Shown piece after piece: positions 170-29,959 of a DNA stretch of 31,910 nt (positions are counted from its first letter, which is position 1; every line of letters starts with the position of its first letter). Position numbers and translations under genes: made by a program. This DNA is from a virus. Lineage: Duplodnaviria; Caudoviricetes. The stretch covers positions 1 through 31,910 of the IMG/VR virus record IMGVR_UViG_3300012663_000601; one strand, given 5' to 3'. A model generated the notes under the pieces. It was not told where the DNA came from. It ran no database searches and worked only from the letters and a program-made list of their open reading frames with translations.

Positions 170-1147
170 ATGCACGAAGACTTTCAAAAGATACCATTCC
201 AAAATATTGTACGTTTTGGACAAAGAACAATGTTGAACCAGCCCCTGTTCTCCACAAGTTGGATACTGGGACGGTTCTGTAATTATTCCTGTTCATATTG
301 TTGGCCCTATGCACGTAGTGACAAGTTAGATCATCAGTCATTAGATGTATACAAGCATACAGTAGACGAGATTAAAAGTCAAGCTCGAGCTAATGGATTT
401 AACCAATTCCATTGGAGCTTCAGTGGCGGCGAACCTACTGCATACAAGCAGTTAAATGATTTAGTAAAACATTTAGATGAAACAGAAAGTACGTACCAAA
501 GTATCCACATGACTACTAACTTGAGTCCAGGATCTAAATGGTGGAACACTTGGTGTAGGAATACTGAGTTGTTACAACGCAGAAGTATAACAGCCAGCTT
601 TCATGATGAGTTTGCCAAAGAGCAAGAGTTTGGCGACAAGTGTTTGCAGTTGATGCACGAGCTTGTTCACGTTACCGTAAACCAAGTTATGGTTCCAGAA
701 AAGTTCAATGATCTCTATGATAGAATGGAACGATTACATAAGCGTGGAATCAATGTAACACTGAAACCAATGAGCGATCCTACCGCCAGCCGTATTGTAG
801 ATGGATATACTGAGGACATGATACATAAAATGCAGACAGGATTTCCTCAACGTGCCTTTGGTGAAGAAGTTTACCAAATTGCTCTATACGATGCAGACGA
901 TAAAGAATATCTATTTGATCAAGCAGAACGGTTCAATGCTTTTAGCTTTAACAAATTTAAAGATTGGACTTGCAATGCAGGATATCAAAGTGTTATAATA
1001 AGAGGTAACGAAGTGAAACGCAGCTACAGTTGTCACGACCAATCATTAGGAACACTGGACCACTTTGAATTATTTAAAAAACCACAACTATGTATTACTC
1101 CAAGCTGTGTGAGTTCAGCAGACAGCAAAATACCTAAATGCAAATAG
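170..1147 (+). CDS. Radical SAM protein with C-terminal Cys-rich (Twitch/SPASM-like) region
   Basis: CNYSCSYC motif, SGGEPT, TTN, C-terminal CNAG...YSC...C...C; paralogue of 6621..7517. Confidence 0.9.
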   Translation: MHEDFQKIPFQNIVRFGQRTMLNQPLFSTSWILGRFCNYSCSYCWPYARSDKLDHQSLDVYKHTVDEIKSQARANGFNQFHWSFSGGEPTAYKQLNDLVKHLDETESTYQSIHMTTNLSPGSKWWNTWCRNTELLQRRSITASFHDEFAKEQEFGDKCLQLMHELVHVTVNQVMVPEKFNDLYDRMERLHKRGINVTLKPMSDPTASRIVDGYTEDMIHKMQTGFPQRAFGEEVYQIALYDADDKEYLFDQAERFNAFSFNKFKDWTCNAGYQSVIIRGNEVKRSYSCHDQSLGTLDHFELFKKPQLCITPSCVSSADSKIPKCK

Positions 1148-1728
1148 ATACAGAACATTTACATCATTGGATGCAGGCTATCCGTCAAAGTCCAGATCCT
1201 ATGCGCACAATGGATGCCTTCTGGAGCGGCCAAATAAAAAGCAAAGAATGGCTGATTACAAATTTACATAATAATGTAAGCAAATTTGTCAGCATAGATA
1301 TTCATGGCGGCTGGGTTGGAGTATTAGCCAGTATGTTATTCCAAAGCGATGTACCTGTTACAACTATCCGTAGTGTTGACATTGATCCTACTTGCGAACC
1401 TATTGCCGTTAACATGAATAAAATTGAAGAAATGGTTGGTAAGTTTCGTGCTGTTACCGCAGACATGTGCAATCTTCGTAGTGACGCTGACGTTATCATT
1501 AATACCAGTTGCGAACATATTACTCAGGATCAATTTGATTTATGGAAAAGCGGGATGCCCGCTAACAGTTTACTAGTGTTACAAAGTAATAATTATGATA
1601 TCCCCGAGCACGTTCGTACTGCGGCCTCTTTAGAAGAATTTAAAACTCAATGCGGTATCAATGTTATATGGGCCGGCGAGTTAGAATTACCATTGTATAA
1701 AAGATTTATGATAATAGGTAAACAATAA
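1138..1728 (+). CDS. Putative class I SAM-dependent methyltransferase
   Basis: Rossmann-type IHGGWVG motif I, SVDID acidic motif, TADM, INTSCEH. Confidence 0.65.
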   Translation: MQIDTEHLHHWMQAIRQSPDPMRTMDAFWSGQIKSKEWLITNLHNNVSKFVSIDIHGGWVGVLASMLFQSDVPVTTIRSVDIDPTCEPIAVNMNKIEEMVGKFRAVTADMCNLRSDADVIINTSCEHITQDQFDLWKSGMPANSLLVLQSNNYDIPEHVRTAASLEEFKTQCGINVIWAGELELPLYKRFMIIGKQ

Positions 1729-2819
1729 TGTTTAAGTTTAACGATCTAAAACAAATACATTTAGAAATTTCCAATAACTGCCAAGCATCCTGTCCTATGT
1801 GTACACGGAATATTCATGGCGGTCTTGATAATCCGTTGATAACAATCAGTAATTGGTCACTGGATCGTTATAAAACTATCATCAATGAAGAAGTTTTAAC
1901 TCAAGTTAGTTTAATATATTTTTGCGGAAACTATGGCGACCCACTATTAAACTCTGAGCTGATCGACATGATTAGATACTCTGTAAAAATTAATCCTAAT
2001 CTAGAAATACGTATTCATACAAATGGTAGCCTTCGAAGTACAGAGTGGTGGAAGGAGTTATATCATGCTCTGCCCGCAAAACATCACGTGGTATTTGCTA
2101 TTGATGGATTAGAGGATACACATTCACTGTATCGTATTGGTACAGACTTTAACAAAATTATAGAGAATGCTACAGCATTTATACGAGAGGGTGGAAAAGC
2201 AGAATGGGCTTATATACGATTTAAACATAACGAACACCAGGTAGATGTTGCTAGACACATGGCTACTGATCTTAAATTTAAAGAATTTGTGATGAAGGAC
2301 AGTTCTAGATGGTTATTGGATACAAAATTTCCTGTGTTTGATAAACAAGGCGACACTATCTATCATTTAGAGCCGAGTCAATATTCACAGTTAAAATTCA
2401 TTGACAAGAAAATCTTAGATAATTATAAATCTATTTTAGCAAAGACAGAAATTAATTGTCATGCATTAAATTTAAAAGAAATTTATATCAATGCTCAAGG
2501 TCACGTGTTTCCGTGTTGTTGGTTGGCCCAAATTCCTTATCAATCAGAAGATCAAGAAAAAGCAGTACTACCTGTTAGAAGAGAAATATTGCAACAATAT
2601 TATCAATTGGTAGAATCCTTAGGTGGTATTTCTGCGCTAGACGGGGAACAACGATCAGTTAAAGAAATTATTAATTCTGAACCCTATCAAACAGTATGGG
2701 ATGATTATTGGCACGATAACAAACTGATTACCTGCGCAAGGTCCTGCGGAGTAATGCCAGAATTATTTTCTACTCCTGCGGATCAATTTATTTCGAGAGA
2801 AAATTTAAAAGATGAATAA
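1728..2819 (+). CDS. Radical SAM protein with C-terminal Twitch/SPASM-like domain
   Basis: CQASCPMC, FCGNYGDP, HTNG, IDG, GHVFPCCW and CARSC; paralogue of 14338..15429. Confidence 0.9.
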   Translation: MFKFNDLKQIHLEISNNCQASCPMCTRNIHGGLDNPLITISNWSLDRYKTIINEEVLTQVSLIYFCGNYGDPLLNSELIDMIRYSVKINPNLEIRIHTNGSLRSTEWWKELYHALPAKHHVVFAIDGLEDTHSLYRIGTDFNKIIENATAFIREGGKAEWAYIRFKHNEHQVDVARHMATDLKFKEFVMKDSSRWLLDTKFPVFDKQGDTIYHLEPSQYSQLKFIDKKILDNYKSILAKTEINCHALNLKEIYINAQGHVFPCCWLAQIPYQSEDQEKAVLPVRREILQQYYQLVESLGGISALDGEQRSVKEIINSEPYQTVWDDYWHDNKLITCARSCGVMPELFSTPADQFISRENLKDE

Positions 2820-4233
2820 AGTATTTTGGATGCAGCCTACCGATACCCAAATAGGAAAATGGCAGGACCAAATTAAAGATGTATCTGGTAGTCCTAGTTT
2901 TTGTATACTACCTTGGATACATCTAGCGACCCGCCCTAATGGTGACATGCGTATATGCTGTGTAGCTAATGCCAGTGGAGCAGACACTGGGGATTATACC
3001 GTTGGGTTAGTTAAAAAAGAAGATGGTCAGCCAGCAAACTTTGCTAACGATCTTCCCACAAGTGCATTTAATAATGATTATATGAAGTCAGTACGTAAGA
3101 CTATGTTAGAGGGAGCAGTCCCTGCTAGTTGCACTAAATGCTTTGAAGAAGAAGCAGAGGGGATTGCTAGTAAGCGTATTTGGGAAACTGGCACCTGGCA
3201 CCTAAATGAAAAGATTGACATTAAAGAATTGATTGCTGAAACAGAACTGGACGGTTCAATTCCATATAAACTACAGTACTTAGATTTAAGGTTAGGACAT
3301 ACTTGTAATTTAAAATGTATCATGTGCAGTCCACATGATAGCAGTATGTGGGTTGCCGATCATAAAAAGGTATTTCCTATATTCACTAGTTCTTTGATCA
3401 AGAAACAAATGAGTTGGGAAGGGTTAGACTTTAACAACCAGTGGTATGAAAACCCTGCGTTCTGGGCAGAAATTTATGATCAGATACCTAACATTAAACA
3501 GTTGTACTTTGCAGGTGGCGAACCTTTATTAATTAAAGAGCATAAAGTATTTTTATTAGAAATCATTGCTCGCGGATATGCTGGCCAGATTAGTCTACGA
3601 TATAATACAAATGGCATTCTAGTCAATGATGAAATCATAGAGATATGGAGTCAGTTCCGCAAAGTAAAAGTAGGAGTTAGTCTAGACGGCATCGGACCAC
3701 GAGGGGAATATATACGTTATCCATTAGACTGGAAAGAAGTAGAATCCAACCTAGTTAAGTTAGATAATGCACCAGACAATATACAAACCAACATTGCTAT
3801 GGCAGTGCAAATACTAAACATCAAACATGTTCCAGATTTTATTAAGTGGAAGGTGCGTATGAAATTTAACAAAGTAAACTTTGACCTAAATGCAGCAGGC
3901 CAAGTGATGGGCGGTGGACTGGTAGGCGTACACTTATTATGGATACCAACTTGGTTGAGTCTACGTGTACTGCCTAAAGAAGATAAACTCGAAGTACGAA
4001 ACTTATTTGCAGAACTACAGCAATGGTTGTGGGACAATTATACACAGGATACAGAATTTTGGGAAGTTAACCCGTACGGTTGGAAACGTTGGGAAGGCAT
4101 ACTAGACTGGATGGACAAAGAAGATCATACTAATTTAATACCAGACTTTAAAGATTATATTACTACAATGGACGCACAGCGAGGAACTGATTTTTCTCAG
4201 ACTTTTCCAGAATTGAGTCATTTAATAAAATGA
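2812..4233 (+). CDS. Radical SAM protein with N-terminal Twitch/SPASM-like domain
   Basis: N-terminal CILPW...RICC...CTKC, core CNLKCIMC, FAGGEP, YNTNG, SLDG; paralogue of 7510..8769. Confidence 0.9.
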   Translation: MNKVFWMQPTDTQIGKWQDQIKDVSGSPSFCILPWIHLATRPNGDMRICCVANASGADTGDYTVGLVKKEDGQPANFANDLPTSAFNNDYMKSVRKTMLEGAVPASCTKCFEEEAEGIASKRIWETGTWHLNEKIDIKELIAETELDGSIPYKLQYLDLRLGHTCNLKCIMCSPHDSSMWVADHKKVFPIFTSSLIKKQMSWEGLDFNNQWYENPAFWAEIYDQIPNIKQLYFAGGEPLLIKEHKVFLLEIIARGYAGQISLRYNTNGILVNDEIIEIWSQFRKVKVGVSLDGIGPRGEYIRYPLDWKEVESNLVKLDNAPDNIQTNIAMAVQILNIKHVPDFIKWKVRMKFNKVNFDLNAAGQVMGGGLVGVHLLWIPTWLSLRVLPKEDKLEVRNLFAELQQWLWDNYTQDTEFWEVNPYGWKRWEGILDWMDKEDHTNLIPDFKDYITTMDAQRGTDFSQTFPELSHLIK

Positions 4234-4664
4234 AATTTTGTCGTATTAATTTAAGTAAAACTAATTACGAGACAATGGTTCAAGAACACCAATGGCAATA
4301 TGTCAGCGATCGTCAGTTCTCTAAACTCAACGATATCTACGAAAAATATTGCAGATACAAAAAGTTTGACAGCGTCATGCCTATATTTCCAAATCAATAT
4401 ACCGATGACTCAGTTGACATTGTAGGATATTTTGATAATGGGCAACTGGTAGCCTGGGATATGATTAAAATACATAATGCTAAAAACGCAGAAGCATTAC
4501 AGTTTGCGTGGGACTATAAAAATCCGGATCTACGATTAGGTATGGAAAGTCTAAAGAATGCCTGTGCTATCTATAAACACAGAGGCTTCGAATATCTATA
4601 CCTAGGTACCGCAGCAAATTATAAAAAAGAAATTGACGGATATGAAGAATTAGGTCCTGTCTGA
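4230..4664 (+). CDS. GNAT-fold protein resembling the C-terminal domain of arginyl-tRNA-protein transferase (ATE/Bpt)
   Basis: FAWDY...LRLG...GFEYLYLG...YK resembles the ATE_C ending (SLG...YxYLGY...YK). Confidence 0.5.
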   Translation: MKFCRINLSKTNYETMVQEHQWQYVSDRQFSKLNDIYEKYCRYKKFDSVMPIFPNQYTDDSVDIVGYFDNGQLVAWDMIKIHNAKNAEALQFAWDYKNPDLRLGMESLKNACAIYKHRGFEYLYLGTAANYKKEIDGYEELGPV

Positions 4665-5126
4665 TCTCCAAGATACCACATCATTATACAGATCGTCTGG
4701 CCAATTTTTATAATATCCTGCATCCGTTAGTTGTTTGCTAGCTGCGTTTAGTTTTTCTTTCTGCTGTACTAATATAATATTATATCGGCCGTTGCTGAAA
4801 TTTAAGTGATGGAATATTTCCGGTATATCTTTATGATCCTCTAAACATACAAATCCCCTAGACAACCAATGGTCATTTAGACGTCTAACATCTAATACAA
4901 AATTAGTCGGCTCTACATCTCCACATACGAATCCCACAACGTCATATTCCGTAGACCAATTTTCTAAACACTGTGTAATGTCAACAATATAGTTGTCGGT
5001 CTCTATAAATTTTATCCTAGCCTTTCTAGCATAAGGGCACGGGGGCAAGCCGTTGAGTAGAGCCTCTGGTTTACTTAGAAATCCTTCTATCCATGATCTA
5101 AGATACGGTTCAAATTCCGTAGTCAT
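4650..5126 (-). CDS. Hypothetical protein, DUF1415-like N-terminus
   Basis: W...LNGLPPCPYA motif and LEDH. Start moved to the ATG at 5126 (MTTEF), which overlaps the end of the upstream gene. Confidence 0.55.
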   Translation of the reverse strand: MTTEFEPYLRSWIEGFLSKPEALLNGLPPCPYARKARIKFIETDNYIVDITQCLENWSTEYDVVGFVCGDVEPTNFVLDVRRLNDHWLSRGFVCLEDHKDIPEIFHHLNFSNGRYNIILVQQKEKLNAASKQLTDAGYYKNWPDDLYNDVVSWRSDRT

Positions 5127-6294
5127 TTTGTCCACCACTACGTCTAACATCTAATGTAAGACAATGCCATCCACCGTCCCAAAAAAATCTATGTCGCAAT
5201 GGACAGTATATTGGTTCGAGGTTATGCTTTTTCAAAACAGAAAATAATTCTTTGCTATTACTGTTTACAACAACGTGTCGATCATCAACTACTAAACAGT
5301 TCAAATCAAAAATAGTTTCTTCAACGAAACCGGTCCAATTAGGCAATACTGATTCTACAAATTTAGTAAATTCGTAGTTCTCCTCCTCGCCCGGAACCCA
5401 CCACTTTCCTCTATTCTGTTCTTTTAAGTCATGAAATTTCCCCACATCTTCCCATCGTGTATCATTGAAATAAATTACTTCCCAGCCTTTAAAATTATGC
5501 TCTCGACCTTTGAACCACGGCCCGGCAATAACCACTCCTGGTTTTAACACACTAAAAATACCATCGTTGTGGCCGCCAAGCATTAATTTACTATAATTAA
5601 ATTGGGGATATCGTTCCATGAGATAGGTTATTGCTTCTTCAGTTTGGTGCAAATCAACTAGACATTTTTTTCCTATCCTGGTTATATTTGGACTACAAAA
5701 TCCAGACAGTGGAGTATCTAAAAGTAGTTTATTTTTTTCGTCTTGAGATAGTAGATCGTAGTTTATATCCAGCCCTTTAATTTCTATGTATTCTTTAAAA
5801 TTGTCTTCAGTACGTCGGAATTGTTTTTCTCCGTTATACAAAGTTAAATCTATTTGTTCGGACCCAAACCATTCCTGAAATTTCTTAACGTATCCGTCTA
5901 CCTCAAACGTTTTATCTGTGATTAAGATCTTATTTCCCATTACAACAGAGTCGTCGCGAACCTGTAACGGGTGAATTGGAATTAATGCATCCCTTACTAT
6001 GTGTGAACTTTCGCTAGCGTGACCAATCCTGCCATTAACATCTGCATAATCCAATATGCTGTTATGGTATCCCAATTCCGTAGGAGATGCTTGAAATACT
6101 TCTATGTTATGAGATTTCATCTGTTCTTTAAAATATTCGATATCCTCGGTAGTTTCATCGCATATTTTTTTAAGAACATCGCATATTTTCTTATTTTTCA
6201 CACCGTCAAAGAAACTGCTGTCGTAGGTGCTTCCTACAACCACGGCTTCTAAAGGTTGAAACTCATCCCAACTATTAATTTTAATTTTTTTCAT
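5110..6294 (-). CDS. Amidinotransferase (glycine/inosamine-phosphate amidinotransferase, pentein superfamily)
   Basis: NSWDEFQPLEAVVVG, VRD, HNDG and catalytic-Cys motif DGGWHCLTLDVRR. Start taken at ATG 6294 (MKKIK). Confidence 0.85.
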   Translation of the reverse strand: MKKIKINSWDEFQPLEAVVVGSTYDSSFFDGVKNKKICDVLKKICDETTEDIEYFKEQMKSHNIEVFQASPTELGYHNSILDYADVNGRIGHASESSHIVRDALIPIHPLQVRDDSVVMGNKILITDKTFEVDGYVKKFQEWFGSEQIDLTLYNGEKQFRRTEDNFKEYIEIKGLDINYDLLSQDEKNKLLLDTPLSGFCSPNITRIGKKCLVDLHQTEEAITYLMERYPQFNYSKLMLGGHNDGIFSVLKPGVVIAGPWFKGREHNFKGWEVIYFNDTRWEDVGKFHDLKEQNRGKWWVPGEEENYEFTKFVESVLPNWTGFVEETIFDLNCLVVDDRHVVVNSNSKELFSVLKKHNLEPIYCPLRHRFFWDGGWHCLTLDVRRSGGQNDYGI

Positions 6295-6613
6295 CTGGCC
6301 AATCTCTATAATATGCATGTTGGATGTTGCCCCCAACAAATTGATTAAAGCTACGGTGCTTATCTTCTAGCTCACCTTCTAATGGAGCCACACGCTGGAA
6401 CGCTGTTTCTAACTGTGCCATATTATTAAACTCCATCATAATATGCCACTCTGGAATATCCATACTACGGAATCCCATTTTGCATCTAGTAATTCGATAC
6501 CGTACCATCTTATCTTCATTTACTAAGTGATCGAGAAACGACTTCATATTAGTAACCCATTCTGAATCGCTAATGTCGCCTTCTTTATCTGCCCATACGT
6601 GATATATATCCAT
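6281..6613 (-). CDS. Small protein, DUF6614-like
   Basis: MDIYHVW...FLDHL...YRITRCKMGF...HIMMEFNNMAQLETAF matches the family as recalled. Confidence 0.6.
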   Translation of the reverse strand: MDIYHVWADKEGDISDSEWVTNMKSFLDHLVNEDKMVRYRITRCKMGFRSMDIPEWHIMMEFNNMAQLETAFQRVAPLEGELEDKHRSFNQFVGGNIQHAYYRDWPDEKN

Positions 6614-6620
6614 CAGATAT

Positions 6621-7517
6621 TTAATCTCCTTTAATTTTTGTTAGAGGAATATCGGCAGCACAGGTACACCAGTCTCTAGTACATACAATTGGGTTTGTAG
6701 GTACTACAAAACTCCCTGTGTAAATATTACCTAAACTGCCGCCTACTCGACAAGTAGCACGATGCACCTCGCCGTCCCAGTTAATCATTAAACTCTCAAT
6801 GCCTGCATTACAGGTCCAATTTTTAAATTGATTTTGATGTAATTTAATAACATCGTTGCTATGCATAACTTCACCGTCGTCGATTCGACAGTTTGGTTTA
6901 ACAGTAGCATCGTGATCTAATATCCATTGTAAGTCTTTTCCTTCATATCTTAAATCGTCAAAAACGTTATGATCACCTTCGGTCCAACGTATTCTACGTA
7001 CAGCATATTTGATTCCGATCTCTTGAAACTTTTTAACTACAGTTCTTACATGATCCATTTTATCGTGATGCGCCATAACATTAACAAAAAAATCTCGTTC
7101 TGTGCTGTCATAAAATTTTAAAATAGTATCAACTACTCTGGTCCAGTCGTGTTCGAAGTGTAGACTAAACACAAGATGATTAAAAAATATTTCATTATCT
7201 AAATACCAGCGATACCCTCGGGTACCATTAGTTGTTAGATTGACCCAAAATATATCCTTGCGTTTAAAGTATTCAAGGAGATCTTCAATGTCCGGATGTA
7301 CACATGGTTCTCCGCCAGTTAAACTAATGCGTAACGGCTTACCTATTTCACATAGTTTATCAACAGTTGCTTCTAGTGCGGCAATATCCGTGTGCGGACT
7401 AAAGTTATCGTGTATGCTACTAGGACAGTATGTACAATCGTAGTTACACCGTTTACCAAGATTCCATTCTATTTTAATTTGATCTTGATGTGGCCAAGCA
7501 GAAGTTACTTTATACAT
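6621..7517 (-). CDS. Radical SAM protein with C-terminal Cys-rich region
   Basis: CNYDCTYC, TGGEP, TTNG, CNAG...ATC...CTRDWCTC. Confidence 0.9.
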   Translation of the reverse strand: MYKVTSAWPHQDQIKIEWNLGKRCNYDCTYCPSSIHDNFSPHTDIAALEATVDKLCEIGKPLRISLTGGEPCVHPDIEDLLEYFKRKDIFWVNLTTNGTRGYRWYLDNEIFFNHLVFSLHFEHDWTRVVDTILKFYDSTERDFFVNVMAHHDKMDHVRTVVKKFQEIGIKYAVRRIRWTEGDHNVFDDLRYEGKDLQWILDHDATVKPNCRIDDGEVMHSNDVIKLHQNQFKNWTCNAGIESLMINWDGEVHRATCRVGGSLGNIYTGSFVVPTNPIVCTRDWCTCAADIPLTKIKGD

Positions 7518-8769
7518 AATTTTTAAACTCAGGAGTTACTTCTAAAAAACTTTGACTGCGTGATTTATCTAATCTACGATTAAACTCTACACAGTCTGAC
7601 CACTTCTCGCTTTGATCCCGTGCTTGCAAATAGTTAATGTTATCTTGTATTTGCCCAAGTGTGTACTCTAAAAGTTGTGGATGTTGTTTAACTAATTTAA
7701 AATCCTTAACTCTCTTATGTACAGCAATTAGTTTGTCTATTGCTAACATTCTTAGATCACTAGGCAATACCTGTGCTGATAACAGTTTTGGGTATTCAAC
7801 GCGATGTGTATGGAACACAATGCCTAGGTCGTCTAGAAAGTATTCGATTATCTTATCTAGAATAAGAACATTACTAACTTGCACCGTAACAGCGCCAACT
7901 ATACGACTAATATTTGGAATGGTCTGTATCTGTTTAATATTATTAATTAGTTCTGCCCAGCTGGCATTGCCTCGAATATATTCATAACTATCGCCAATAC
8001 CATCTATGCTCACGTTAACCGCCACTGACTTGAACTTAGGCCAGTATTCCCAAACAGTTCGATCGCTTTTACCCAGCATGGTCAAATTGGTAGCATACTT
8101 AATTTCAATCTGATCACCGTAAGGCGCAAGCATGTCTAATATGCGATAGTGCTGTGGATCCATTAACGGTTCACCACCAGCAAACTCTACACGACGGAAG
8201 TGTGGTAATAGCTTTTCTAAACTAGCCCACCATTCCGGATTGTCTTGAAACTTGTCAAGATGCGGCTTAGTTTCTAAGTTGTGTTCTTCTACAATAGCAT
8301 ACATGATATTGCCTTCTGCTTTGTAAAAGTCTTTTACTTCACTCCAGTCATTCCAACTCGTACTATCCATCGGATGGCACATACGACATTTTAAATTGCA
8401 TAAATTGTTTAGTTTGAGCTCCATTGTGGGAATCTCAAAAGGCATAGTAAAGTCGTGACGCATTTTTTTCAATGCATCTGGATACAAATTTATTCTTGCT
8501 TCTGGAATTTTTCCTGCAATATGTCGCTGGCGCAGACTTTCAACACCTTGATCTTCTAGACTAAAACAAGGTTCGCATTCAACGGGGCGTTCACCTATTA
8601 ATACCTGTCGACGAATCCGCTGCATTACCTCACTATTCCAATGATACTCTAATGGTGCATCTTGTATAAAACCGATAGGATGGCTTCGACAACAAGCACA
8701 GATAGCACCGTCTTCTCTAGTTGCTAGTCCTGTAAAAGGATGCATACAAAATGTTTTACTTTGGTGCAT
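7510..8769 (-). CDS. Radical SAM protein with N-terminal Twitch/SPASM-like domain
   Basis: FCMHPF...CACC...CEPC, CNLKCRMC, FAGGEP, SIDG. Confidence 0.9.
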   Translation of the reverse strand: MHQSKTFCMHPFTGLATREDGAICACCRSHPIGFIQDAPLEYHWNSEVMQRIRRQVLIGERPVECEPCFSLEDQGVESLRQRHIAGKIPEARINLYPDALKKMRHDFTMPFEIPTMELKLNNLCNLKCRMCHPMDSTSWNDWSEVKDFYKAEGNIMYAIVEEHNLETKPHLDKFQDNPEWWASLEKLLPHFRRVEFAGGEPLMDPQHYRILDMLAPYGDQIEIKYATNLTMLGKSDRTVWEYWPKFKSVAVNVSIDGIGDSYEYIRGNASWAELINNIKQIQTIPNISRIVGAVTVQVSNVLILDKIIEYFLDDLGIVFHTHRVEYPKLLSAQVLPSDLRMLAIDKLIAVHKRVKDFKLVKQHPQLLEYTLGQIQDNINYLQARDQSEKWSDCVEFNRRLDKSRSQSFLEVTPEFKNYV

Positions 8770-9358
8770 TGATTATCTCGTATAATTTTTTAGCCGCGTT
8801 GCTGTGACTTACGTGGCCAGGGTGACTATTGTCTAGTGCTTTGTCAACCATTGTTAAAATGTCTTCATTTATATAAGTTGTAGGAGTCAATATAAAATTT
8901 GGCATCACTTCATACCAAGCCCACGAAGTAGAAAAATGATGTTGTTGAATATTTTTTGTTTTTAAAAAACATTCAGCATGGTGTATATGAAGTCCTGTTC
9001 TTACAGATAGATCATAGTTATTATGAACATCTGCCCATTTTTCAATAAATTTTGTATCTTTGTGCCAAGCATTTACTTGTATAGAAGTATCCATGCCTAA
9101 CAGATTTTTTCTAAAAATATAGTCTCTTTGAGGATAGGTCCATCCGACAATTACTATGTCAGTTTGCTGAAATTCAAAGTTTAAAATATCTTTTAATATT
9201 TGTATATTGCTGTGTCCCGGAACAGCAGTATTAACGACACGGTATCCTAGCATATCTCCCAGTACTTTGGGCCATGCACGATCACTGGGATAGGTATCAG
9301 TTGGATCTAACCAATGTCCAAAGGTTAAGCTATCTCCAAAAGCTATTAATCTAGTCAT
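8756..9358 (-). CDS. SGNH/GDSL hydrolase-family protein
   Basis: FGDSLTFG block I, NTAVPGHSN block II, DNSHPG block V. Start taken at ATG 9358 (MTRLIAF). Confidence 0.8.
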   Translation of the reverse strand: MTRLIAFGDSLTFGHWLDPTDTYPSDRAWPKVLGDMLGYRVVNTAVPGHSNIQILKDILNFEFQQTDIVIVGWTYPQRDYIFRKNLLGMDTSIQVNAWHKDTKFIEKWADVHNNYDLSVRTGLHIHHAECFLKTKNIQQHHFSTSWAWYEVMPNFILTPTTYINEDILTMVDKALDNSHPGHVSHSNAAKKLYEIINAPK

Positions 9359-15937: not shown

Positions 15938-15950
15938 TAATAATATCCCG

Positions 15951-17533: not shown

Positions 17534-17534
17534 G

Positions 17535-20265: not shown

Positions 20266-20275
20266 GCATAAATTA

Positions 20276-20986
20276 ATGTATAGAGGGGAATTTAGAGTGA
20301 CAGATTTTGATTACTATTACAATAATGTTCCAGGGCACGGGCCGTGCAGGAATAATTTAATATATACTAGCCTCATATCAGTTGATAAAAAAACTTTTGT
20401 TCAGTGGTATCATAATGATACTGAATATCACAAGGGCCAAAATCAAGTTGTAGATCCTATCAAAATGGAAGAAAAGTGGCTGAGAGAAATTAATTATATT
20501 ACTCAGATGCGCAATGTATACCCTGATCTAGTTCCTATCATTCAAAACATTGATCTTGCTGCACGTAAGATATATTTGAAAATAGATGGACCGGACTTCT
20601 GGGAACAGGCAAAATGTGATCAGGCAAACTATGATAGTGTACTGCCCGATTGGCAAGATCAGATGATCAATATTATTAAAGCGCACAAGAGTTTGGGATT
20701 TCACAAGTATAGTATGCACCCTAGCAGCTATTTTGTTGTAGACGGCAAGCTAAAAAGTATTAATTATTTTTTTACATACAAAGACCACGAACCACAAATT
20801 AGTATTGCTGATGTTGAAAGTCACATATACTCTACAAGACAAGACGAGATGCGCAAAAATATAGAACAACTAGGCATCAAATGGGACGAGCCGCAACCTT
20901 GGGAATTGTTTGATATGTTATGTTGGGAAAGTTTTAAAACCAACTATCCAGCAGAATTTATCGAGAAGGCTAAATGTACAAAATAG
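20276..20986 (+). CDS. Protein-kinase-like fold protein with degenerate catalytic loop
   Basis: NLIYTS, WLREINYI, KYSMHPSSYF..DGKLKSINYF; paralogue of 13167..13853. The true start may be GTG 20297 (GAGGGG upstream). Confidence 0.55.
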   Translation: MYRGEFRVTDFDYYYNNVPGHGPCRNNLIYTSLISVDKKTFVQWYHNDTEYHKGQNQVVDPIKMEEKWLREINYITQMRNVYPDLVPIIQNIDLAARKIYLKIDGPDFWEQAKCDQANYDSVLPDWQDQMINIIKAHKSLGFHKYSMHPSSYFVVDGKLKSINYFFTYKDHEPQISIADVESHIYSTRQDEMRKNIEQLGIKWDEPQPWELFDMLCWESFKTNYPAEFIEKAKCTK

Positions 20987-21525
20987 TGCCCTGGACAGAA
21001 TCATTAGACCTATCAGATTTTTATAGGCTGGCACAGGCCAAGGGATTCGTAAATAACTCTAGTCAAAAAATGCTTGTTGATTGTTTTCGTAAAGAACAAG
21101 AGTGGCAAGTTTGGATTCTATATTATAACAATGTAGCTGTTGGTAGTGTAGCCGCACATAGCTTTCCTGAAATGGGTGATGATGCATATCGTGTCGCTGC
21201 TCGTACATGTGTGTTTACCGACTTATTACCTACTAATAGCCTTAGGACAAAAAATCAAATTGTAACACATCAACATGTTACCAGTCAATTTTTAATACCG
21301 GCGTGTATTGAATGGGCACCTAAAGGTAGTAGATTGTACATCACTAGCAATGAAAATGATGCCGGAACTCAGAGACTAGTACACAGAATTTTTGGGCCAG
21401 CAATGGAAGCTACTGGTCAAATGAAGAAGATTAAAGATATCTTTTACAGAGGCACTGATCAAACAGTGTGGGAAATATTTCCTGTCAGATTTTATGAGGA
21501 ATTAAATAAGCACTCAAGATGGTAA
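20974..21525 (+). CDS. Putative GNAT-fold acyltransferase
   Basis: Pattern WILYYNNVAVGSVAAH...YRVAARTC...CIEWA...LYITSN suggests GNAT topology. Confidence 0.45.
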   Translation: MYKIVPWTESLDLSDFYRLAQAKGFVNNSSQKMLVDCFRKEQEWQVWILYYNNVAVGSVAAHSFPEMGDDAYRVAARTCVFTDLLPTNSLRTKNQIVTHQHVTSQFLIPACIEWAPKGSRLYITSNENDAGTQRLVHRIFGPAMEATGQMKKIKDIFYRGTDQTVWEIFPVRFYEELNKHSRW

Positions 21526-22250
21526 ATTTAGATTATATTAATATTGATGGAATACCTATTGGCATATACAAAGCTGGCCCTATTGGTGTAGGTATAAGCG
21601 GCGGCGCTGATAGCGCAATTCTTTTATACATTTTAATGTCTAACGTAAAGAAGCCTATACACATTTATAATATGTGGACGACTTACAGACAGAATGTATT
21701 TGGAAAATATGTAGATGCTGTTATTGAAACTTGTTCAAAGTTAACCGGTAACACTAATTATATTGTTCACAAAATTCAATCAGAACCCGATGAGTCTGTT
21801 GAATTTTATTTCAATATGCTTACTGATGCATTAGACAGAAAAGAAATCGATATAGTATACTTGGGTATAACGGTATTCCCTCCTAGAGAAGTTTACTTAA
21901 CATTCACTAGTCAACAACCGGAATGGCATAACGATTTTAGAAGTGGGGAAACAAATCACCCGTTGTTTGGTTTAAATGTACCTGTTGATAAAGCAGAGAA
22001 TTTTAGTCAAGTGCCATTAACAATCAATGGCGAGCCTATAGATGAGTTAACGCTAGATACTCGTGCATACATACCGTTGTTTAATCATAATAAAAAAGAC
22101 ATAGCTAAATTGTATAGACATTTTGGCTTAGAGCAAACACTATTACCTGTTACTCGTAGTTGCGAAAATGATAGTCATCCAGATAGTCATTGTGGCACAT
22201 GTTGGTGGTGTCATGAACGGGTCTGGGCATTTGGTACCCTTGGAGAATAA
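21519..22250 (+). CDS. QueC-like PP-loop ATP pyrophosphatase
   Basis: SGGADS; TRSC...CGTCWWCHER. Confidence 0.8.
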   Translation: MVNLDYINIDGIPIGIYKAGPIGVGISGGADSAILLYILMSNVKKPIHIYNMWTTYRQNVFGKYVDAVIETCSKLTGNTNYIVHKIQSEPDESVEFYFNMLTDALDRKEIDIVYLGITVFPPREVYLTFTSQQPEWHNDFRSGETNHPLFGLNVPVDKAENFSQVPLTINGEPIDELTLDTRAYIPLFNHNKKDIAKLYRHFGLEQTLLPVTRSCENDSHPDSHCGTCWWCHERVWAFGTLGE

Positions 22251-23699
22251 ATGGATTACATTGTTAAAAAACAAAAGAAAATTGCTTACTGTATTCTAGA
22301 TAACATTAGCAACCAAGCTAGCACAACATCACAGGAAATAGCAAGAAATCTAAGTGATTTCTTAATATCTTCTATTATTGAAAATAGCAATGATATTTTT
22401 ATTGATGGATCTTCGGATGCACTGTTGCAAAGAGTAGCTATCGATGAATATTATACTCATGCAGTTATACTAATTACAGGAACCCATTTAGGGTTATCAA
22501 CAAGATTGTTTGATGCTATAGAAACTAAATGCCAAGAACATTTTTCTATTGCTGGACATATATTAGACCGCAGTAAATTCAATGGATACTACGAAATACA
22601 TGATCAGTTTTTTATCGTTAATATGGCAGAGTATCGTAGACTAGACATGCCTGACATGGGGCAGACCGAATGGAAAACTGAACACACTAAATTAGAACCA
22701 ATTAGAAGTATGGAAGTTGTAGCGGAAGATGATGAGATTCCAGTATGGATAAAGAAAGGCAATACTAAAAAGATATATCAACATAAGATGCATGGTTGGA
22801 ACTTTATTGACTATGGGTTAGAACACGGTGCAGTATTCTGCGATGTAGGCGACACTATACGCAATAATAAGAAGTACTTATATTTTGAACATGATCATGT
22901 ATTCTATAGACACTTACCAGAATTGTTTAACTATTCATTAATTTGTAACAACATGGTAACTCCGTGGAACAGCGATGTTCTTCCAAAATCTTTAGATATT
23001 GGAGCACCGGTTGATCATTATATTTCTACAGGCACAGGCCTCAATTGGATTCATAATTTATTAAAACTAAAGTATCATAAAAATACTAAAGTAACGTTTA
23101 TGGATATAAGCTATGCCGTATTAAGTTTCATGCAGATAATGATCAATGAATGGGACGGAGTAGATTATGCAACTTTTTATATGAAGCATTTAAAGTTTGT
23201 TCCGGATAGTTACGAATACGATCTAGTCAATCACGAAAAACGTATTAGAGATTGGTGGGAAGAATTTGAAAAAACATTTGAAGACTTTCAACAGATTTGG
23301 AAAGATATTAAACAACTAAAATACGACTTTAAACTAGTTGATTTCTTTGTTAATAACAAATACAAGTTCATAACTCCCGGAGAAGTTACATTTGTCAACG
23401 TAAGTGATGCATTTAATCATGTACCATATGTACATTATGCTAATGTTAAGTTTAGAGTTTCTAGAGAAAATAACTTAATTGTAACGCTTCAAAATATTGA
23501 CAAAAATATTATATTGCATATTCCCACACGTATCGGTCATCTTTATAAACTGAATTTGTCCGATGGCGACGATTTAATTGTTGGAGCTGTTAAAGATTTC
23601 AACTTATGGGATATAAACCAATTTAATGCACCGCCGTGGCAGAAAGAAAACTGGAAAAGTCTATGTCCGTTAACACATCAAGTTAGGATATTGCAATGA
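22251..23699 (+). CDS. Hypothetical protein (482 aa)
   Basis: Long ORF coupled to both neighbours. The C-terminal half has Rossmann-like STGTG...FMDIS; function not assignable. Confidence 0.6.
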   Translation: MDYIVKKQKKIAYCILDNISNQASTTSQEIARNLSDFLISSIIENSNDIFIDGSSDALLQRVAIDEYYTHAVILITGTHLGLSTRLFDAIETKCQEHFSIAGHILDRSKFNGYYEIHDQFFIVNMAEYRRLDMPDMGQTEWKTEHTKLEPIRSMEVVAEDDEIPVWIKKGNTKKIYQHKMHGWNFIDYGLEHGAVFCDVGDTIRNNKKYLYFEHDHVFYRHLPELFNYSLICNNMVTPWNSDVLPKSLDIGAPVDHYISTGTGLNWIHNLLKLKYHKNTKVTFMDISYAVLSFMQIMINEWDGVDYATFYMKHLKFVPDSYEYDLVNHEKRIRDWWEEFEKTFEDFQQIWKDIKQLKYDFKLVDFFVNNKYKFITPGEVTFVNVSDAFNHVPYVHYANVKFRVSRENNLIVTLQNIDKNIILHIPTRIGHLYKLNLSDGDDLIVGAVKDFNLWDINQFNAPPWQKENWKSLCPLTHQVRILQ

Positions 23700-24349
23700 G
23701 AGAGTATTTTCAATCAGAAGGCCGATATTTAAAATTAGATATAGAATTGCCTTACAAAGAAATGTGCAAAGAAGCATTTAGTTTGCTTGATAAGTTTTCT
23801 CCGCATCGAGGAGACGAATACTCACATAATGGTTGGGAGAGTTTAACTATTCACGGATTAGGATGGGATAAACACGAGAACTACGATACGTATGGTTATA
23901 AGCGTGGCAAGGATGCTAGTAATGATATGAAGTGGACAGAAATAGCAGACCTATGCCCTATAACAACTAAATGGCTTAAAGAAGTGTTTCCTTGTAAAAA
24001 ATACGGGCGTGTTAGATTTATGTTATTACGAGCCGGCGGAGAAATTGCAATGCATAATGATTCCCCTAGCGGTATGAGATTAATAGAAAATATCAATGTT
24101 GCACTTAATAATCCCCAAGGGTGTAAATGGATATGGGGCGACGGCGAAGAACTAATTATGGAACCCGGTGGTGTGTATGCGATGAATTTAAGCTATGATC
24201 ACAGCGTGATTAATAAAAGTAATGAAGATCGTATGCATATAATTATTGCTAGACACGACGGATTAGACGAATGGAAGTCATTAGTAAACAAAGCAGCTAG
24301 TAATCAAGGTATTACTGGCAGTTACATCGAGATTGACGAACTGCCTTAG
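23696..24349 (+). CDS. Asp/Asn beta-hydroxylase-like Fe(II)/2OG oxygenase
   Basis: RVRFMLLRAGGEIAMHND, HSVINKSNEDRMHIII. Confidence 0.8.
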   Translation: MREYFQSEGRYLKLDIELPYKEMCKEAFSLLDKFSPHRGDEYSHNGWESLTIHGLGWDKHENYDTYGYKRGKDASNDMKWTEIADLCPITTKWLKEVFPCKKYGRVRFMLLRAGGEIAMHNDSPSGMRLIENINVALNNPQGCKWIWGDGEELIMEPGGVYAMNLSYDHSVINKSNEDRMHIIIARHDGLDEWKSLVNKAASNQGITGSYIEIDELP

Positions 24350-25197
24350 TTGGTATAATCTTGATCTGGAAAATCGAACGCTCCCCTATGTAACAGACGT
24401 TGCTCTATGTTTTCAAAACGATGTCTCTTATGTATTCCTAAATTTTGTTCAGACATAACAACATCACCGTCGTTCCAGTTGTGATGGTAACAATATTTGT
24501 CCTGAATAGTGTGTAGCGATAACCAGGCTATCATCTCTTTACTTTGATCATCTGGTAGCTCTTTAATTTTTATAATTTGTAAAAATGGAAAAAATAAACC
24601 TTTTTGTCCTGCTATATTTTTTCTAACCATAACTGGATAATAATCAGACACTACAAGATCCTCCTCTTCGTCAGGATTTTCTGCATCGAACCCTGCTTCA
24701 AGCAGCACCTGTAAATGATAGTTTTCTATTTGATCTTTAACACTACTATCTAAGTCTTGATAAGATAGTATATTATTGTTCCAAGTTGTACAAGACCCGC
24801 TGGTTCCCCTAACACCGTATAACCAAACAATTGGCTTTCGATATTCTGCACCTGGTTCATTACAATGCCAAATCATTTCACTTGTGTGAGCTGCTATACC
24901 AGTAAGGCCGTGTTCATTTTTCTCGCCCGTTACTCTTAGGAATAGTCCTTCAGATTCAGGAATCTCACTACCAGTCATTTCACTTATAAAGTCTTGTGTG
25001 AATAGTTGTGGCTCTTTAAACATTCTAGCGATTCTGATTTCGTCTTGTATTGTTAACTGTTGGTTTTTAGCAACAACTAGTGTATTGCTAGCAATCAATT
25101 TAGAAATTTGATTTATGTCTTCCTGTGTAGCATTTTTAAAATCGAAATCTTTAAGTATAACAGTCCACCCGTTATTATGTAGTTCATAGTTTATCAT
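24346..25197 (-). CDS. TauD/TfdA-family dioxygenase-like protein
   Basis: WHCN, YHHNWNDGDVV...HKR...RLLHR; close paralogue of 19373..20227. Confidence 0.8.
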   Translation of the reverse strand: MINYELHNNGWTVILKDFDFKNATQEDINQISKLIASNTLVVAKNQQLTIQDEIRIARMFKEPQLFTQDFISEMTGSEIPESEGLFLRVTGEKNEHGLTGIAAHTSEMIWHCNEPGAEYRKPIVWLYGVRGTSGSCTTWNNNILSYQDLDSSVKDQIENYHLQVLLEAGFDAENPDEEEDLVVSDYYPVMVRKNIAGQKGLFFPFLQIIKIKELPDDQSKEMIAWLSLHTIQDKYCYHHNWNDGDVVMSEQNLGIHKRHRFENIEQRLLHRGAFDFPDQDYTN

Positions 25198-25762
25198 TTG
25201 GTCCTTTTTCTAAAAGATCGTTCATCTCAACGTTAATTATTTTTTCAATACCCACTATAGGGATATTTATGGGAGATGCAAGTATGTATTGTATCATCTT
25301 GACAATTTCTACTGGATCCATACGATCTCGGCAGGCATTTTCATAGTCTTGAAAACCGCCAACAACTATGTGTGTTGTTTTAAAAAATTCTGTGCATAGA
25401 TTTAAACTTGCTTCTCGAAGTTGTCGTTTTTCATCAGTATAATCGATGTCATGCCACTCCCATCTTTTATATTCTGCTATACTGCCTATGTTAAAGACGT
25501 GTCCTTGCATACCGGAGGCATGTGCTATTCTAAGAAGTTTTTCCTGTGTTCTATTTGCTATACGAGAAATATTTATAAAAACATCGTAGTTTAATATAAT
25601 AGATTTAAAATAATCCAATCCTTCCTGTGTAAGAAGATCTACACCCATTGACTGTGATATACAAGTAGTATTTGGAAAATTTGCTACTACTTGTTTAGCA
25701 ATGCCTTCATTATTAGGATTCCCAGTACATAATATTCGAAGATTATTTAATGACATCTGCAA
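25184..25762 (-). CDS. Short-chain dehydrogenase/reductase-like protein
   Basis: ILCTG....GIA, DVFIN, NIGS, YTDEK (YxxxK). The start may be ATG 25756. Confidence 0.7.
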   Translation of the reverse strand: MQMSLNNLRILCTGNPNNEGIAKQVVANFPNTTCISQSMGVDLLTQEGLDYFKSIILNYDVFINISRIANRTQEKLLRIAHASGMQGHVFNIGSIAEYKRWEWHDIDYTDEKRQLREASLNLCTEFFKTTHIVVGGFQDYENACRDRMDPVEIVKMIQYILASPINIPIVGIEKIINVEMNDLLEKGPNDKL

Positions 25763-26234
25763 GATCTTTTCCTGTAAATCTAAAGGATATAACTAATCTA
25801 TTTTTATCACCTAGGTTAACAATTTGATGATAGTTTTCTATATTTAAAAAGTATGGAGAGTCTAGAGTTATTCTTCCTACCTCATTCTTATCATCATCAT
25901 AAAACGCAGTGTATGTTGTTTTGCAATTTAATATAGGAATGTTTAATGCCCATGGAGATTTATCTTCATCTTTATGTAGATCCGAACCACCTTTACCTAA
26001 GTGATTAATTAAATGATAATGTGTAATATATTCTATATGTACTACAGAATTTAAAAATTCTTTTAATTTAGGCAATTCCGGAATGTCGTAAAAACAGGCT
26101 CCTGAATTTCTCGTACTTTCTAATGGAGAGTCGTCACTCCATTCATCGGGTGTCCTACTAAAGAAATTGTATTCAATTAGTTCATCTTGTATTTCTTTTA
26201 AATTATCAATTTCTATTCTTTTATACATTTTCAT
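25743..26234 (-). CDS. Fe(II)/2OG-type (cupin) oxygenase
   Basis: LHKD, ALNIPI, YHQIVN...RLVISFRF. Confidence 0.65.
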   Translation of the reverse strand: MKMYKRIEIDNLKEIQDELIEYNFFSRTPDEWSDDSPLESTRNSGACFYDIPELPKLKEFLNSVVHIEYITHYHLINHLGKGGSDLHKDEDKSPWALNIPILNCKTTYTAFYDDDKNEVGRITLDSPYFLNIENYHQIVNLGDKNRLVISFRFTGKDLADVIK

Positions 26235-26940
26235 TTCTCAATTGCTGTCTAAATTCTTCAGTGAACTCTCCGTCCACTCTTAACATGTAAGTAGTTTGTG
26301 GACACGGATCGCTTCCATGATAATCGTGATCGTTGAAGTACACCGCTCTTGTTTTAAGGTAAGATCTTTCGGTAGTTCCCGCACTTCTTATATAAAATGG
26401 TCTGTTAAGATCGGATCGTATGTACACAAATTCATGAATTGCTTTATCTCCCGGCCACTCAGGATCACTGTGTTCTATTGATGTTCCCCCACCTTCAACA
26501 ATGAGAAAATATGCACTTTTAATTTTTGTAAATATTGTTAGGTTGTTAATCCATTCAATGGTGGATAAAAAGTTAATAGATTGAAAGTCATCTTCTTGAC
26601 TTATTACTTGATATACTTTGTAAGGATTATGTGCGCCAAGTGCATAAGTTATGTAAAGGATAAGATCATTTTCATTCTCAAACTTAGACCCTGCAACTTT
26701 AATAGGATGGTCAACTGGAAATAGCTTATACTGATCATACAAATACCAAACCGGCTTCAATCCGTTTTTATAAAGATCTAAGTTAACAAATGGCTTATTA
26801 GGTTCGTACAAATCTAGGTACCCTAAACTAACGACATCTTTTGCAATTACAAATCCGCTACATATATCCGGATGTATAGCATCAAATTTATCCATATCTA
26901 CATATTTCTCTACATCGATATAATGTCTATTGTATATCAT
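26221..26940 (-). CDS. Putative Fe(II)/2OG-type oxygenase
   Basis: EHSD, YHG, MLRVDG; paralogue of 17535..18338. Confidence 0.55.
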   Translation of the reverse strand: MIYNRHYIDVEKYVDMDKFDAIHPDICSGFVIAKDVVSLGYLDLYEPNKPFVNLDLYKNGLKPVWYLYDQYKLFPVDHPIKVAGSKFENENDLILYITYALGAHNPYKVYQVISQEDDFQSINFLSTIEWINNLTIFTKIKSAYFLIVEGGGTSIEHSDPEWPGDKAIHEFVYIRSDLNRPFYIRSAGTTERSYLKTRAVYFNDHDYHGSDPCPQTTYMLRVDGEFTEEFRQQLRNENV

Positions 26941-27671
26941 TATTCGAGTATCCTTCGTTTGAAATCATCAGAGAATCTGCCATTTATTCTCAACGTATAT
27001 GTAGGACGATTAATAGGGTCTCCGCCGTGCCATTCTCTTTCATCCCACCAGGCCACTCGTGTGGTTATATACGTGCGAATATTTGTCAACGGATCAAGTA
27101 CATAGAACGGCCTATCTAAATCAGTTTTTATATGAATAAATTCCGGCCTCCATTCTTCCTCGTCTTCTTCATCTGTTTCAGGATCAAAGTGTTCCCAAGG
27201 GACCCCGCCAGCTTCTAAAGTCATTAGTGTTGCACTGTGTAAACTTTTGAATATTCCAGACGTTTCAAAATTAAGAATCCAGTTTACTAGATTAGGGAAA
27301 TGCTCGTTGAGTTCACCTACGCCGTTGTTTTGAAAATCAACGTCGAGTATTTTATATATGGAATATAAATCATATCCGCCAAATGCAAATTTTAAATAGG
27401 CAGTTAGTTGATTGTAGTTTAGATCTTTGCCAGATATTTTTAATGGGTCAGTATCCGGTAGGCTATTCCACAAGGAATATATTTCGTACAATGGATTAAC
27501 TTTGTACCCCTGACTACAAGGATTGATAGAACCTGGATTGATTATCTGGTTTCCGTCGATACTGAGAGATTTAGCAGTAGCAATTCCTTTACATATTTCT
27601 GGGTGCAGAGAATCAAATTCTGTTAGGTCTACGTGCTTTGCTAAGTCTATGTAAAGGCGATTATTGATCAT
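26940..27671 (-). CDS. Putative Fe(II)/2OG-type oxygenase
   Basis: EHFD, WHGG, TLRING; tandem paralogue of 26221..26940. Confidence 0.55.
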   Translation of the reverse strand: MINNRLYIDLAKHVDLTEFDSLHPEICKGIATAKSLSIDGNQIINPGSINPCSQGYKVNPLYEIYSLWNSLPDTDPLKISGKDLNYNQLTAYLKFAFGGYDLYSIYKILDVDFQNNGVGELNEHFPNLVNWILNFETSGIFKSLHSATLMTLEAGGVPWEHFDPETDEEDEEEWRPEFIHIKTDLDRPFYVLDPLTNIRTYITTRVAWWDEREWHGGDPINRPTYTLRINGRFSDDFKRRILE

Positions 27672-29958: not shown

Positions 29959-29959
29959 A

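Follow-up and report, generated by a model that had tools for sequence, protein, structure and literature searches.

Islands of modifying enzymes have been described in several tailed phages, and they place into context the locus analyzed here, a run of 34 open reading frames (ORFs; o1 to o34, positions 170 to 27671) in the IMG/VR virus record IMGVR_UViG_3300012663_000601. The window, meaning the whole stretch of 31,910 nucleotides that was analyzed, is the complete 31.9-kb record, and ORF starts within it were set mechanically. The Campylobacter phages CP220 and CPt10 carry a module in which, in the part of the source available, radical S-adenosylmethionine (SAM) genes cluster with an amidinotransferase gene (Timms et al. 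2010, PMC2853527). The radical SAM proteins of CP220 are 21 to 26% identical to o1, o3, o9, and o18, and its module includes two annotated nucleoside diphosphate (NDP)-sugar transferases. It is smaller, with 10 to 12 genes and 5 radical SAM enzymes against 34 genes, 8 radical SAM enzymes, and about 10 oxygenases in the window, and it gives no match to o28, o13, o2, or the kinase-fold proteins.

Similarly, the variable island known as the host recognition cluster (HRC) in pelagimyophages and cyanomyophages combines tail fibres, glycosyltransferases (GTs), and radical SAM cassettes, as far as the available text describes it (Zaragoza-Solas et al. 2020, PMC7029224). In the Pelagibacter phage Mosig (MT647606), genes 72 to 96 lie between VrlC and the tail fibres and include homologues of o2, o3, o9, o13, o22, and o24, together with carbamoyltransferase and sugar aminotransferase genes; TAAATA stands 5 nt ahead of a divergent unit head, as in the island studied here. 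The available part of the Mosig genome announcement makes no mention of the island. Whereas HRC occupies the VrlC-gp14 position, the island of the window and of its relative G001 lies by tRNA, rpoZ-like, and phosphatase genes, and others lie by the thyX region; the window island is also larger, has a fixed radical SAM core, and belongs to a different jumbo-phage lineage. A cyanophage cluster of 8 to 12 genes for sugar or amino-acid modification shares jumbo-phage 2-oxoglutarate (2OG) oxygenases, a halogenase, carbamoyltransferases, and methyltransferases but has no radical SAM core, the word "radical" being absent from the available main text (Iyer et al. 2021, PMC7824862). In phage RsoM2USA, genes 347 to 354 comprise GT homologues, an N-terminal-twitch radical SAM gene, and an o2 homologue; tblastn found no match to o28 or o9 in cultured phages. 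The island is a larger form of a phage island type already in print, and the CP220, HRC, and cyanophage papers, in their available parts, give no pathway for it. An earlier note on this DNA, made from the sequence alone, knew of no characterized pathway for such a cluster, and our literature search, supplements not covered, likewise found no paper on one.

The earlier note had proposed that the island hypermodifies a macromolecule, be it virion protein, glycan, or nucleic acid, and had favored virion decoration. The evidence now leans to a glycan rather than to nucleic acid because of a predicted GT-A-fold/methyltransferase fusion, o28, and the DxD-containing GT operons of relatives. Our preferred explanation, to which we give a probability of roughly one-half, is that a tailored, glycan-type decoration, destined for fibre or tail proteins of the virion, is made in the cytoplasm late in infection. 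We infer the product, the acceptor, and every reaction of this pathway, virion decoration included.

Conservation and carrier phage

The island is a genuine system, conserved and under strong selection. Its 34 ORFs stand back to back in six alternating units and are 99.6% coding with a widest gap of 48 nt, in keeping with the more than 30 contiguous tailoring-enzyme genes first counted. There is therefore no space in it for a separate precursor-peptide gene. Family-profile searches of the island ORFs found no nonribosomal peptide synthetase or polyketide synthase (NRPS/PKS), transporter, or regulator, in agreement with the earlier note. Considered as an NRPS/PKS pathway or as one for ribosomally synthesized and post-translationally modified peptides (RiPPs), the window yielded no precursor, scaffold synthase, or exporter; a precursor might be encoded elsewhere. 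All 34 proteins look soluble, with no 19-residue hydrophobic window above 1.7 (membrane-protein control, 2.75). The dN/dS ratio lies at 0 to 0.25 in all 18 of the 34 genes with an unsaturated orthologue (the other 16 are saturated or too distant), which indicates purifying selection and rules out dead or decaying genes. Four freshwater runs, drawn from three studies, contain near-identical pieces, and one contig spans the island-fibre junction.

Of 102 viral loci found with o4, 80 were retained without dereplication; an o28 alignment found 263, of which 79 were retained and 57 remained after dereplication at 90%; a scan with the single o28 sequence had returned no viral locus. Among 17 dereplicated loci with full flanks, o1, o3, o9, o10, and o14 are present in all 17 and o2 and o13 in 16, in 12 different arrangements, with o5 to o8 accessory. 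The 57 o28 loci retain o29 in 55 cases, o22, o25, and o26 in 50 each, and o17 in 49. An o13 alignment run against 185,579 cellular species genomes found two loci, both on contigs below 5 kb, and the one inspected (L098) appears to be this phage island again. From the core counts, the arrangements, and the o13 scan, it follows that a fixed core with swappable accessories is, in the material covered here, almost confined to phages.

One o4 locus lies in G001, a 269.7-kb genome (76% complete) that matches the window in its tRNA/omega flank and in about 20 genes of the island. Among the 131 of its 296 called ORFs that were scanned are those for gp23, the gp20 portal, a T4-type terminase, tail sheath, and a family B polymerase, and it encodes a gp55-type late sigma factor (phrog_12791, E 4e-80). 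The carrier of the island is likely an uncultured, T4-like (gp23/gp55) freshwater jumbo myophage. The viral origin first proposed is upheld, with the capsid, terminase, and gp55 genes suggested as a check being present in this relative and not in the window record itself. A cellular origin is ruled out by the myophage nature of G001 together with the two short o13 contigs. Elsewhere in G001, positions 50134-50833 and 85384-85710 (L086, L088) encode IscU, two IscA-like Fe-S assembly proteins, and superoxide dismutase; the assembly genes are plausibly a supply line for the 13 radical SAM enzymes of that phage. Next to its island lies a gene for translation initiation factor IF-1 (2980-3198, L084; TIGR00008 above cut-off).

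Promoter motif and expression class

The late-type promoters reported in the earlier note are borne out across relatives. TAAATA was scored when it lay 3 to 35 nt upstream of any ATG within the first 35 codons, unit heads and internal genes being treated alike. In the window it stands at five of the six unit heads, with TAAATT at the sixth. Across the 80 o4 loci, it precedes 162 of 177 divergent heads but only 33 of 651 internal genes, and across the 57 o28 loci 110 of 189 heads against 48 of 652 internal genes. In G001, with classes set by hand, the motif is found at 16/19 structural, 3/12 replication or preQ0, and 6/9 island heads (structural versus replication, p 0.002). A sigma-70 scan of positions 1 to 20000 (102 sites versus 80.5 +/- 8.5) was uninformative for promoter class. 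Judged by its motifs, the island would be transcribed late in infection.

Spacing adds a second layer. The distance from TAAATA to ATG is 4 to 6 nt at 134 of the 162 heads of the o4 loci, and the T4 late motif, TATAAATA, is placed at -13 to -6 in the available part of its source (PMC1524935); the ATG would therefore fall at about +1, and leaderless mRNA is predicted. Fibre genes carry TAAATA in 19 of 26 cases, at 20 to 34 nt in 19/19. The two spacings, short at enzyme heads and long at fibre genes, suggest translation-level tuning of late genes.

Expression class also bears on the idea that the island hypermodifies packaged DNA, for instance with an elaborated 7-deazaguanine, or phage tRNAs, which we regard as the least probable of the alternatives. 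What keeps it in play is that G001 encodes FolE, QueE, and QueD-like proteins and that the single QueC-like match in that genome is the island's o12 orthologue. Moreover, tRNA genes adjoin the island, and deazaguanine insertion is post-replicative according to the available part of one preprint (bioRxiv 2023.04.13.536721). Nevertheless, preQ0 gene heads lack TAAATA whereas island heads carry it, the QueC-like matches span the Zn motif only (E 0.005 in G001), and a search of five incomplete records turned up no C5 methyltransferase (control positive in 9/14 genomes). Searches for TET, ADDT, and hmU-kinase gave 0/5 in incomplete records, their controls being likewise silent. Hypermodification of DNA with glycans is reportedly treated in a preprint. 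The FolE, QueE, and QueD-like genes of G001 lie at 93429-105494 and 45672 (L086, L088, L089), accompanied close to the DNA polymerase by two further genes, of 508 aa (unassigned) and 373 aa; the region may form a deazaguanine DNA-modification module of its own. No gene of G001 could be identified as DpdA, for which the 508-aa gene is a possible candidate.

The o28 fusion, fibre genes, and glycosyltransferases

The earlier note saw no visible scaffold gene in the island, a statement weakened by o28 and by the DxD-containing GT operons of relatives. The o28 protein (482 aa) has no family match, and its AF2 model reaches a pLDDT of 93.6. In VIA comparisons, residues ~6-228 resemble GT-A folds, the top-ranking matches including the viral GTs STIV A197 (Z 10.0, rmsd 3.8, 154 aligned) and a PBCV-1 capsid GT (Z 9.5, rmsd 3.9, 171 aligned); residues ~224-458 correspond to a class I methyltransferase fold in which the glycine motif and the acidic residue are retained. 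STIV A197 has a role in virion glycosylation. A064R of PBCV-1, composed of two GT domains and a methyltransferase, builds capsid glycan according to the available part of its source (PMC9614988). Like o28, it joins a viral GT-A domain to a class I SAM methyltransferase, its D1 structure being the one matched by the o28 N-terminal domain at Z 9.5. Unlike o28, it carries a DxD motif and a further GT domain, and its activity has been demonstrated; o28 comes from a bacteriophage, is without DxD, and shares 6% identity in the aligned part. On the strength of the model, o28 may at best function like an A064R-type enzyme. In place of DxD, its family has H103, R107, E115, H117, and Q119 as invariant residues. 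It adjoins the QueC-like ligase in 11 of 14 loci carrying both, the two being fused in P0081. An AMP-binding (ANL) ligase lies directly beside the o28 homologue in L144 (8449-9897), L156 (8443-9900), L147, and L148, occupying the place of the window's QueC-like ligase.

The link to fibre genes, first noted from the adjacent gene, extends to relatives: an Mtd_N fibre gene of varying length closes the island in 28 of the 57, against two distinct outer flanks (31 o35 matches minus three to a ~185-aa fibre-tip-like gene only). Seen from G001 alone, fibre adjacency had appeared unconserved, a view overturned by these loci. A 182- to 189-aa gene that resembles part of the o35 fibre, probably its tip, lies within the enzyme island of L166, L178, L180, L181, and L183 (~8700-9280). 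GT genes recur in the same neighborhood. The island directly follows GT-like genes in L204-L207 and L209, and in L204, L205, and L207 these come after tail-fibre-like genes; a GT8-like pair among them matches glycogenin (E 7e-5), and a second family has DxD and gave no PDB match. In L152, L153, L155, L162, and L187, the island ends in carbamoyltransferase and GT-like genes. Outside its island, G001 has two N-terminal-twitch radical SAM genes, one set in a GT operon and the other beside a carbamoyltransferase gene. Cultured phages repeat this association, as the CP220, RsoM2USA, and Mosig genes described above illustrate.

G001 further carries GT8, GT9, GT25, heptose, and UDP-glucose dehydrogenase genes. 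These would also suit an editing of the host surface, in which nucleotide-sugar or lipid-linked precursors alter the O-chain or capsule of the infected host and exclude competing phages. Alteration of the host O-chain is the role that the HRC paper, in its available part, assigns to its own GTs (PMC7029224), and o29 has a weak LpxO match. We consider host-surface editing unlikely: the late promoter class that it shares with structural genes suits early exclusion poorly, membrane and export proteins are missing from the island, and its linkage to fibre genes persists.

That published role is one of several points that weigh against a glycan-type decoration of the virion. The authors of the CP220 study, again in the part available, interpret the module as helping the host metabolically (PMC2853527). 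No full fibre gene lies within 10 kb of o28 in 29 of the 57 relatives, and G001 has the island without an adjoining fibre gene. The N-x-S/T excess of the fibre (19 versus 8.5 expected) stems from structural GNVT repeats, and such a sequon excess is absent from most G001 structural proteins. The comparison of island with replication heads in G001 (6/9 versus 3/12) gives p 0.09, and no NDP-sugar synthesis gene was found in the window's island. The GT-A matches of o28 score on a par (Z 8-10) with those to nucleotidyltransferases, GlmU among them, and in most of 73 sequences T-G-T occupies the expected DxD position; sugar transfer by o28 is therefore at most a putative activity, and its profile gave nothing against the two GT families (E 0.2-0.6). 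Finally, proteins or small molecules are frequent substrates of the AspH-like, ATE-like, and kinase-fold families.

Enzyme families and the proposed pathway

All eight radical SAM enzymes of the earlier inventory carry CxxxCxxC, and seven pass the Pfam cut-off. Both o4 and o10 belong to the N-terminal-twitch family NF033640 (N_Twi_rSAM; 389 and 326 bits versus a cut-off of 170), as do the two extra G001 copies beside GT or carbamoyltransferase genes. This is a single-gene family that does not describe the whole island, and we know of no function assigned to it. Three of the ten proposed Fe/2OG-type oxygenases exceed Pfam cut-offs, namely the TauD-family o24 (19373) and o30 (24346), at 88 and 64 bits versus 27, and the AspH-like o29 (23696); the other seven are connected by weaker profile, Atlas, or BLAST links (o14, Pfam E 0.008). 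Pairwise hhalign relates o14, o19, o22, o32, and o34 to the o29 family at E 5e-5 to 0.01 (controls, 0.08-0.5). The facial triad H-x-D/E...H of TauD is absent from o24 and o30: both, and 36 of 51 homologues, have H-x-N, D/E is kept in 15/51, and both His are invariant.

The QueC-like pair holds for o27, which exceeds the Pfam cut-off, and is weak for o12. The PP-loop and Zn motif are conserved family-wide (25 sequences), and the match to the preQ0 synthase equivalog TIGR00364, 27 bits versus 150, is limited to these two elements. The SGNH pair and the amidinotransferase are supported (Table 1); one methyltransferase, o21, passes Pfam, and o2 is a weaker lead. Matches for the pyridoxal phosphate (PLP), GNAT, and ATE-like enzymes are weak (for o26, FeeM at E ~0.01 in 2/7 homologues), and the short-chain dehydrogenase/reductase (SDR) call is by motif.

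The earlier inventory was incomplete in that it missed, besides the GT-A-fold/methyltransferase o28, two kinase folds. The o16 model (pLDDT 94.1) has a protein-kinase-like fold (Foldseek E 5.5e-7; VIA Z 13.8, rmsd 4.0, 181 aligned), and o25 is assigned by homology to o16. With positions assigned by eye, the catalytic-loop Asp is S/A/T/N in 43/43 o16 homologues, the DFG position being Asp in 34/43; in the o25 family these are S and Asn, each in 49/49, and an invariant replacement motif is kept. No o25-o26 or o16-o17 fusion occurs in the loci examined, and no useful match came from PDB sequence searches, whether queried with alignments of o22, o2, and g112440 or with o26.

Table 1. Features of the island and its flank in the window
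Feature	Position	Strand	Remarks
TAAATA late-promoter-like motif	154..159	+	10 nt ahead of first gene o1
o1 radical SAM enzyme	170..1147	+	core, 17/17 full-flank relatives
o2 predicted class I methyltransferase	1138..1728	+	Atlas lead, weak; core 16/17; homologues in phages Mosig, RsoM2USA
o3 radical SAM, SPASM/twitch-like C-terminus	1728..2819	+	core; homologues in CP220, Mosig
o4 N-terminal-twitch radical SAM	2812..4233	+	NF033640 above cut-off; core
o5 arginyltransferase (ATE)/GNAT-like	4230..4664	+	weak match, E 6e-5; accessory
o6 no assigned function (phrog_28122/10325)	4650..5150	-	accompanies amidinotransferase; accessory
o7 amidinotransferase, HsvA/SxtG/StrB1-like	5110..6339	-	PDB E 4e-9; real start probably later; accessory
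o8 DUF6614 protein	6281..6613	-	TAAATA 4 nt ahead of ATG; accessory
o9 radical SAM	6621..7517	-	core; frequently duplicated in relatives
o10 N-terminal-twitch radical SAM	7510..8769	-	NF033640 above cut-off; core
o11 SGNH/GDSL esterase or acyltransferase fold	8756..9406	-	Pfam E 5e-6
o12 QueC-like PP-loop ATPase with Zn motif	9351..10079	-	weak Pfam; 13/17
o13 PLP enzyme, threonine-aldolase-like	10066..10923	-	weak, E 0.25; core 16/17; unit head, TAAATA 4 nt before ATG
o14 AspH-like Fe/2OG oxygenase	10963..11628	+	core; unit head, TAAATA 5 nt before ATG
o15 B12-type (class B-like) radical SAM	11625..13166	+	weak B12-binding match
o16 protein-kinase-like fold without catalytic-loop Asp	13167..13853	+	predicted model
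o17 probable Fe/2OG oxygenase	13816..14337	+	motif and BLAST link to o19 only
o18 radical SAM, o3 paralogue	14338..15429	+	
o19 probable Fe/2OG oxygenase	15413..15937	-	pairwise hhalign
o20 second SGNH-fold protein	15951..16784	-	aligns to o11, E 2e-11
o21 class I methyltransferase	16781..17533	-	passes Pfam
o22 AspH-related oxygenase; family shared with o33, o34	17535..18365	-	
o23 radical SAM, N-terminal Zn ribbon (PF23545)	18316..19413	-	
o24 TauD-family oxygenase, H-x-N for H-x-D	19373..20227	-	unit head, TAAATA 30 nt upstream
o25 kinase-fold paralogue without both catalytic Asp	20276..20986	+	unit head, TAAATT variant
o26 probable GNAT-fold acyltransferase	20974..21525	+	weak; next to o25 in 47/50 relatives
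o27 QueC-like PP-loop ATPase	21519..22250	+	above Pfam cut-off; o28-homologue fusion in P0081
o28 predicted GT-A-fold domain (~6-228, no DxD) and class I SAM methyltransferase (~224-458)	22251..23699	+	
o29 AspH-like Fe/2OG oxygenase	23696..24349	+	above Pfam cut-off; next to o28 in 46/55 relatives
o30 TauD-family oxygenase (H-x-N)	24346..25197	-	
o31 SDR-like	25184..25762	-	motif only, no profile confirmation
o32 probable Fe/2OG oxygenase	25743..26234	-	pairwise hhalign
o33 o22-family oxygenase	26221..26940	-	BLAST to o22/o34
o34 o22-family oxygenase	26940..27671	-	unit head, TAAATA 5 nt before ATG
o35 Mtd_N fibre-like protein, GNVT repeats	27716..29323	-	own TAAATA 30 nt upstream
Two more 2OG-Fe(II) oxygenases (phrog_81 type)	29383..30517	-	outside island; without TAAATA
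tRNA-Gly(TCC)	30534..30607	-	with tRNA-Ser(GCT), same pair, same place in G001
Conserved 190-aa helical protein	30614..31186	-	directly after omega gene; no known family; 67% identity in G001
RNA polymerase omega subunit	31188..31418	-	TIGR00690 above cut-off; kept beside island in G001, L100, L101
tRNA-Ser(GCT)	31770..31859	-	see tRNA-Gly(TCC)

The two phrog_81-type oxygenases beyond the fibre gene probably belong to a different expression class.

AspH-like hydroxylases, ATE-like proteins, SPASM/twitch radical SAM enzymes, and kinase folds are protein-acting families. With the Asn/Asp-rich repeats of the fibre, they would fit a direct, sugar-free, RiPP-like modification of virion protein side chains by hydroxylation, methylation, aminoacylation, or radical cross-links. 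This we rate as slightly less likely than host-surface editing: the GT-A-fold fusion and the recurrent GT, carbamoyltransferase, and SGNH neighbors suggest a sugar, and no peptide-maturase model scored above cut-off for the island proteins. Ranking next below it, and similarly improbable, is a diffusible small molecule derived from an aminocyclitol, nucleoside, or polyamine and either freed at lysis or acting in the cell. The amidinotransferase is nearest to HsvA, SxtG, and an inosamine-phosphate enzyme, relatives add halogenase, class III aminotransferase, AdoMet decarboxylase, and AMP-binding ligase genes, and Iyer et al. leave such a product possible for the cyanophage cluster in the available text (PMC7824862). 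Two points count against it: neither a scaffold synthase nor an exporter was found in the island, and accessory content varies around a fixed core more than a single-product pathway would lead one to expect.

For a glycan-type virion decoration, the following sequence can be hypothesized. The gp55-type sigma factor would transcribe the six short units, several of them as leaderless mRNA. Twitch/SPASM radical SAM, SDR-like, and PLP enzymes could then remodel a sugar or aminocyclitol core, to which PP-loop ligases (AMP-binding ones in relatives), the amidinotransferase, and the GNAT/ATE-like and SGNH enzymes may add amide, amidino, and acyl groups, while oxygenases hydroxylate and methyltransferases methylate it. 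It is conceivable that o28, together with GTs elsewhere in the genome, transfers and caps the product on structural proteins before lysis, and that swaps of accessory enzymes vary the particle surface.

A bolder version is doubtful, though less so than the alternatives above. It would have abundant aquatic jumbo phages running a late, natural-product-scale pathway that coats their fibres with a glycan rewritten by radical and oxidative chemistry. Undescribed enzyme classes would serve it, namely a DxD-less GT-A/methyltransferase with an adenylating ligase, Asp-less kinase folds, and His-Asn-His TauD enzymes, and accessory swaps would amount to phage "serotype" variation. To our knowledge, elaborate self-made surface chemistry on such a scale is not known from tailed phages. 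As the cultured Pelagibacter phage Mosig has a homologous island, the question is directly testable. The islands offer dozens of conserved radical SAM, oxygenase, and odd-active-site enzymes without an assigned reaction. Should they decorate virions, host recognition and the survival of particles would gain a further, chemical dimension in phages that are very common in aquatic habitats.

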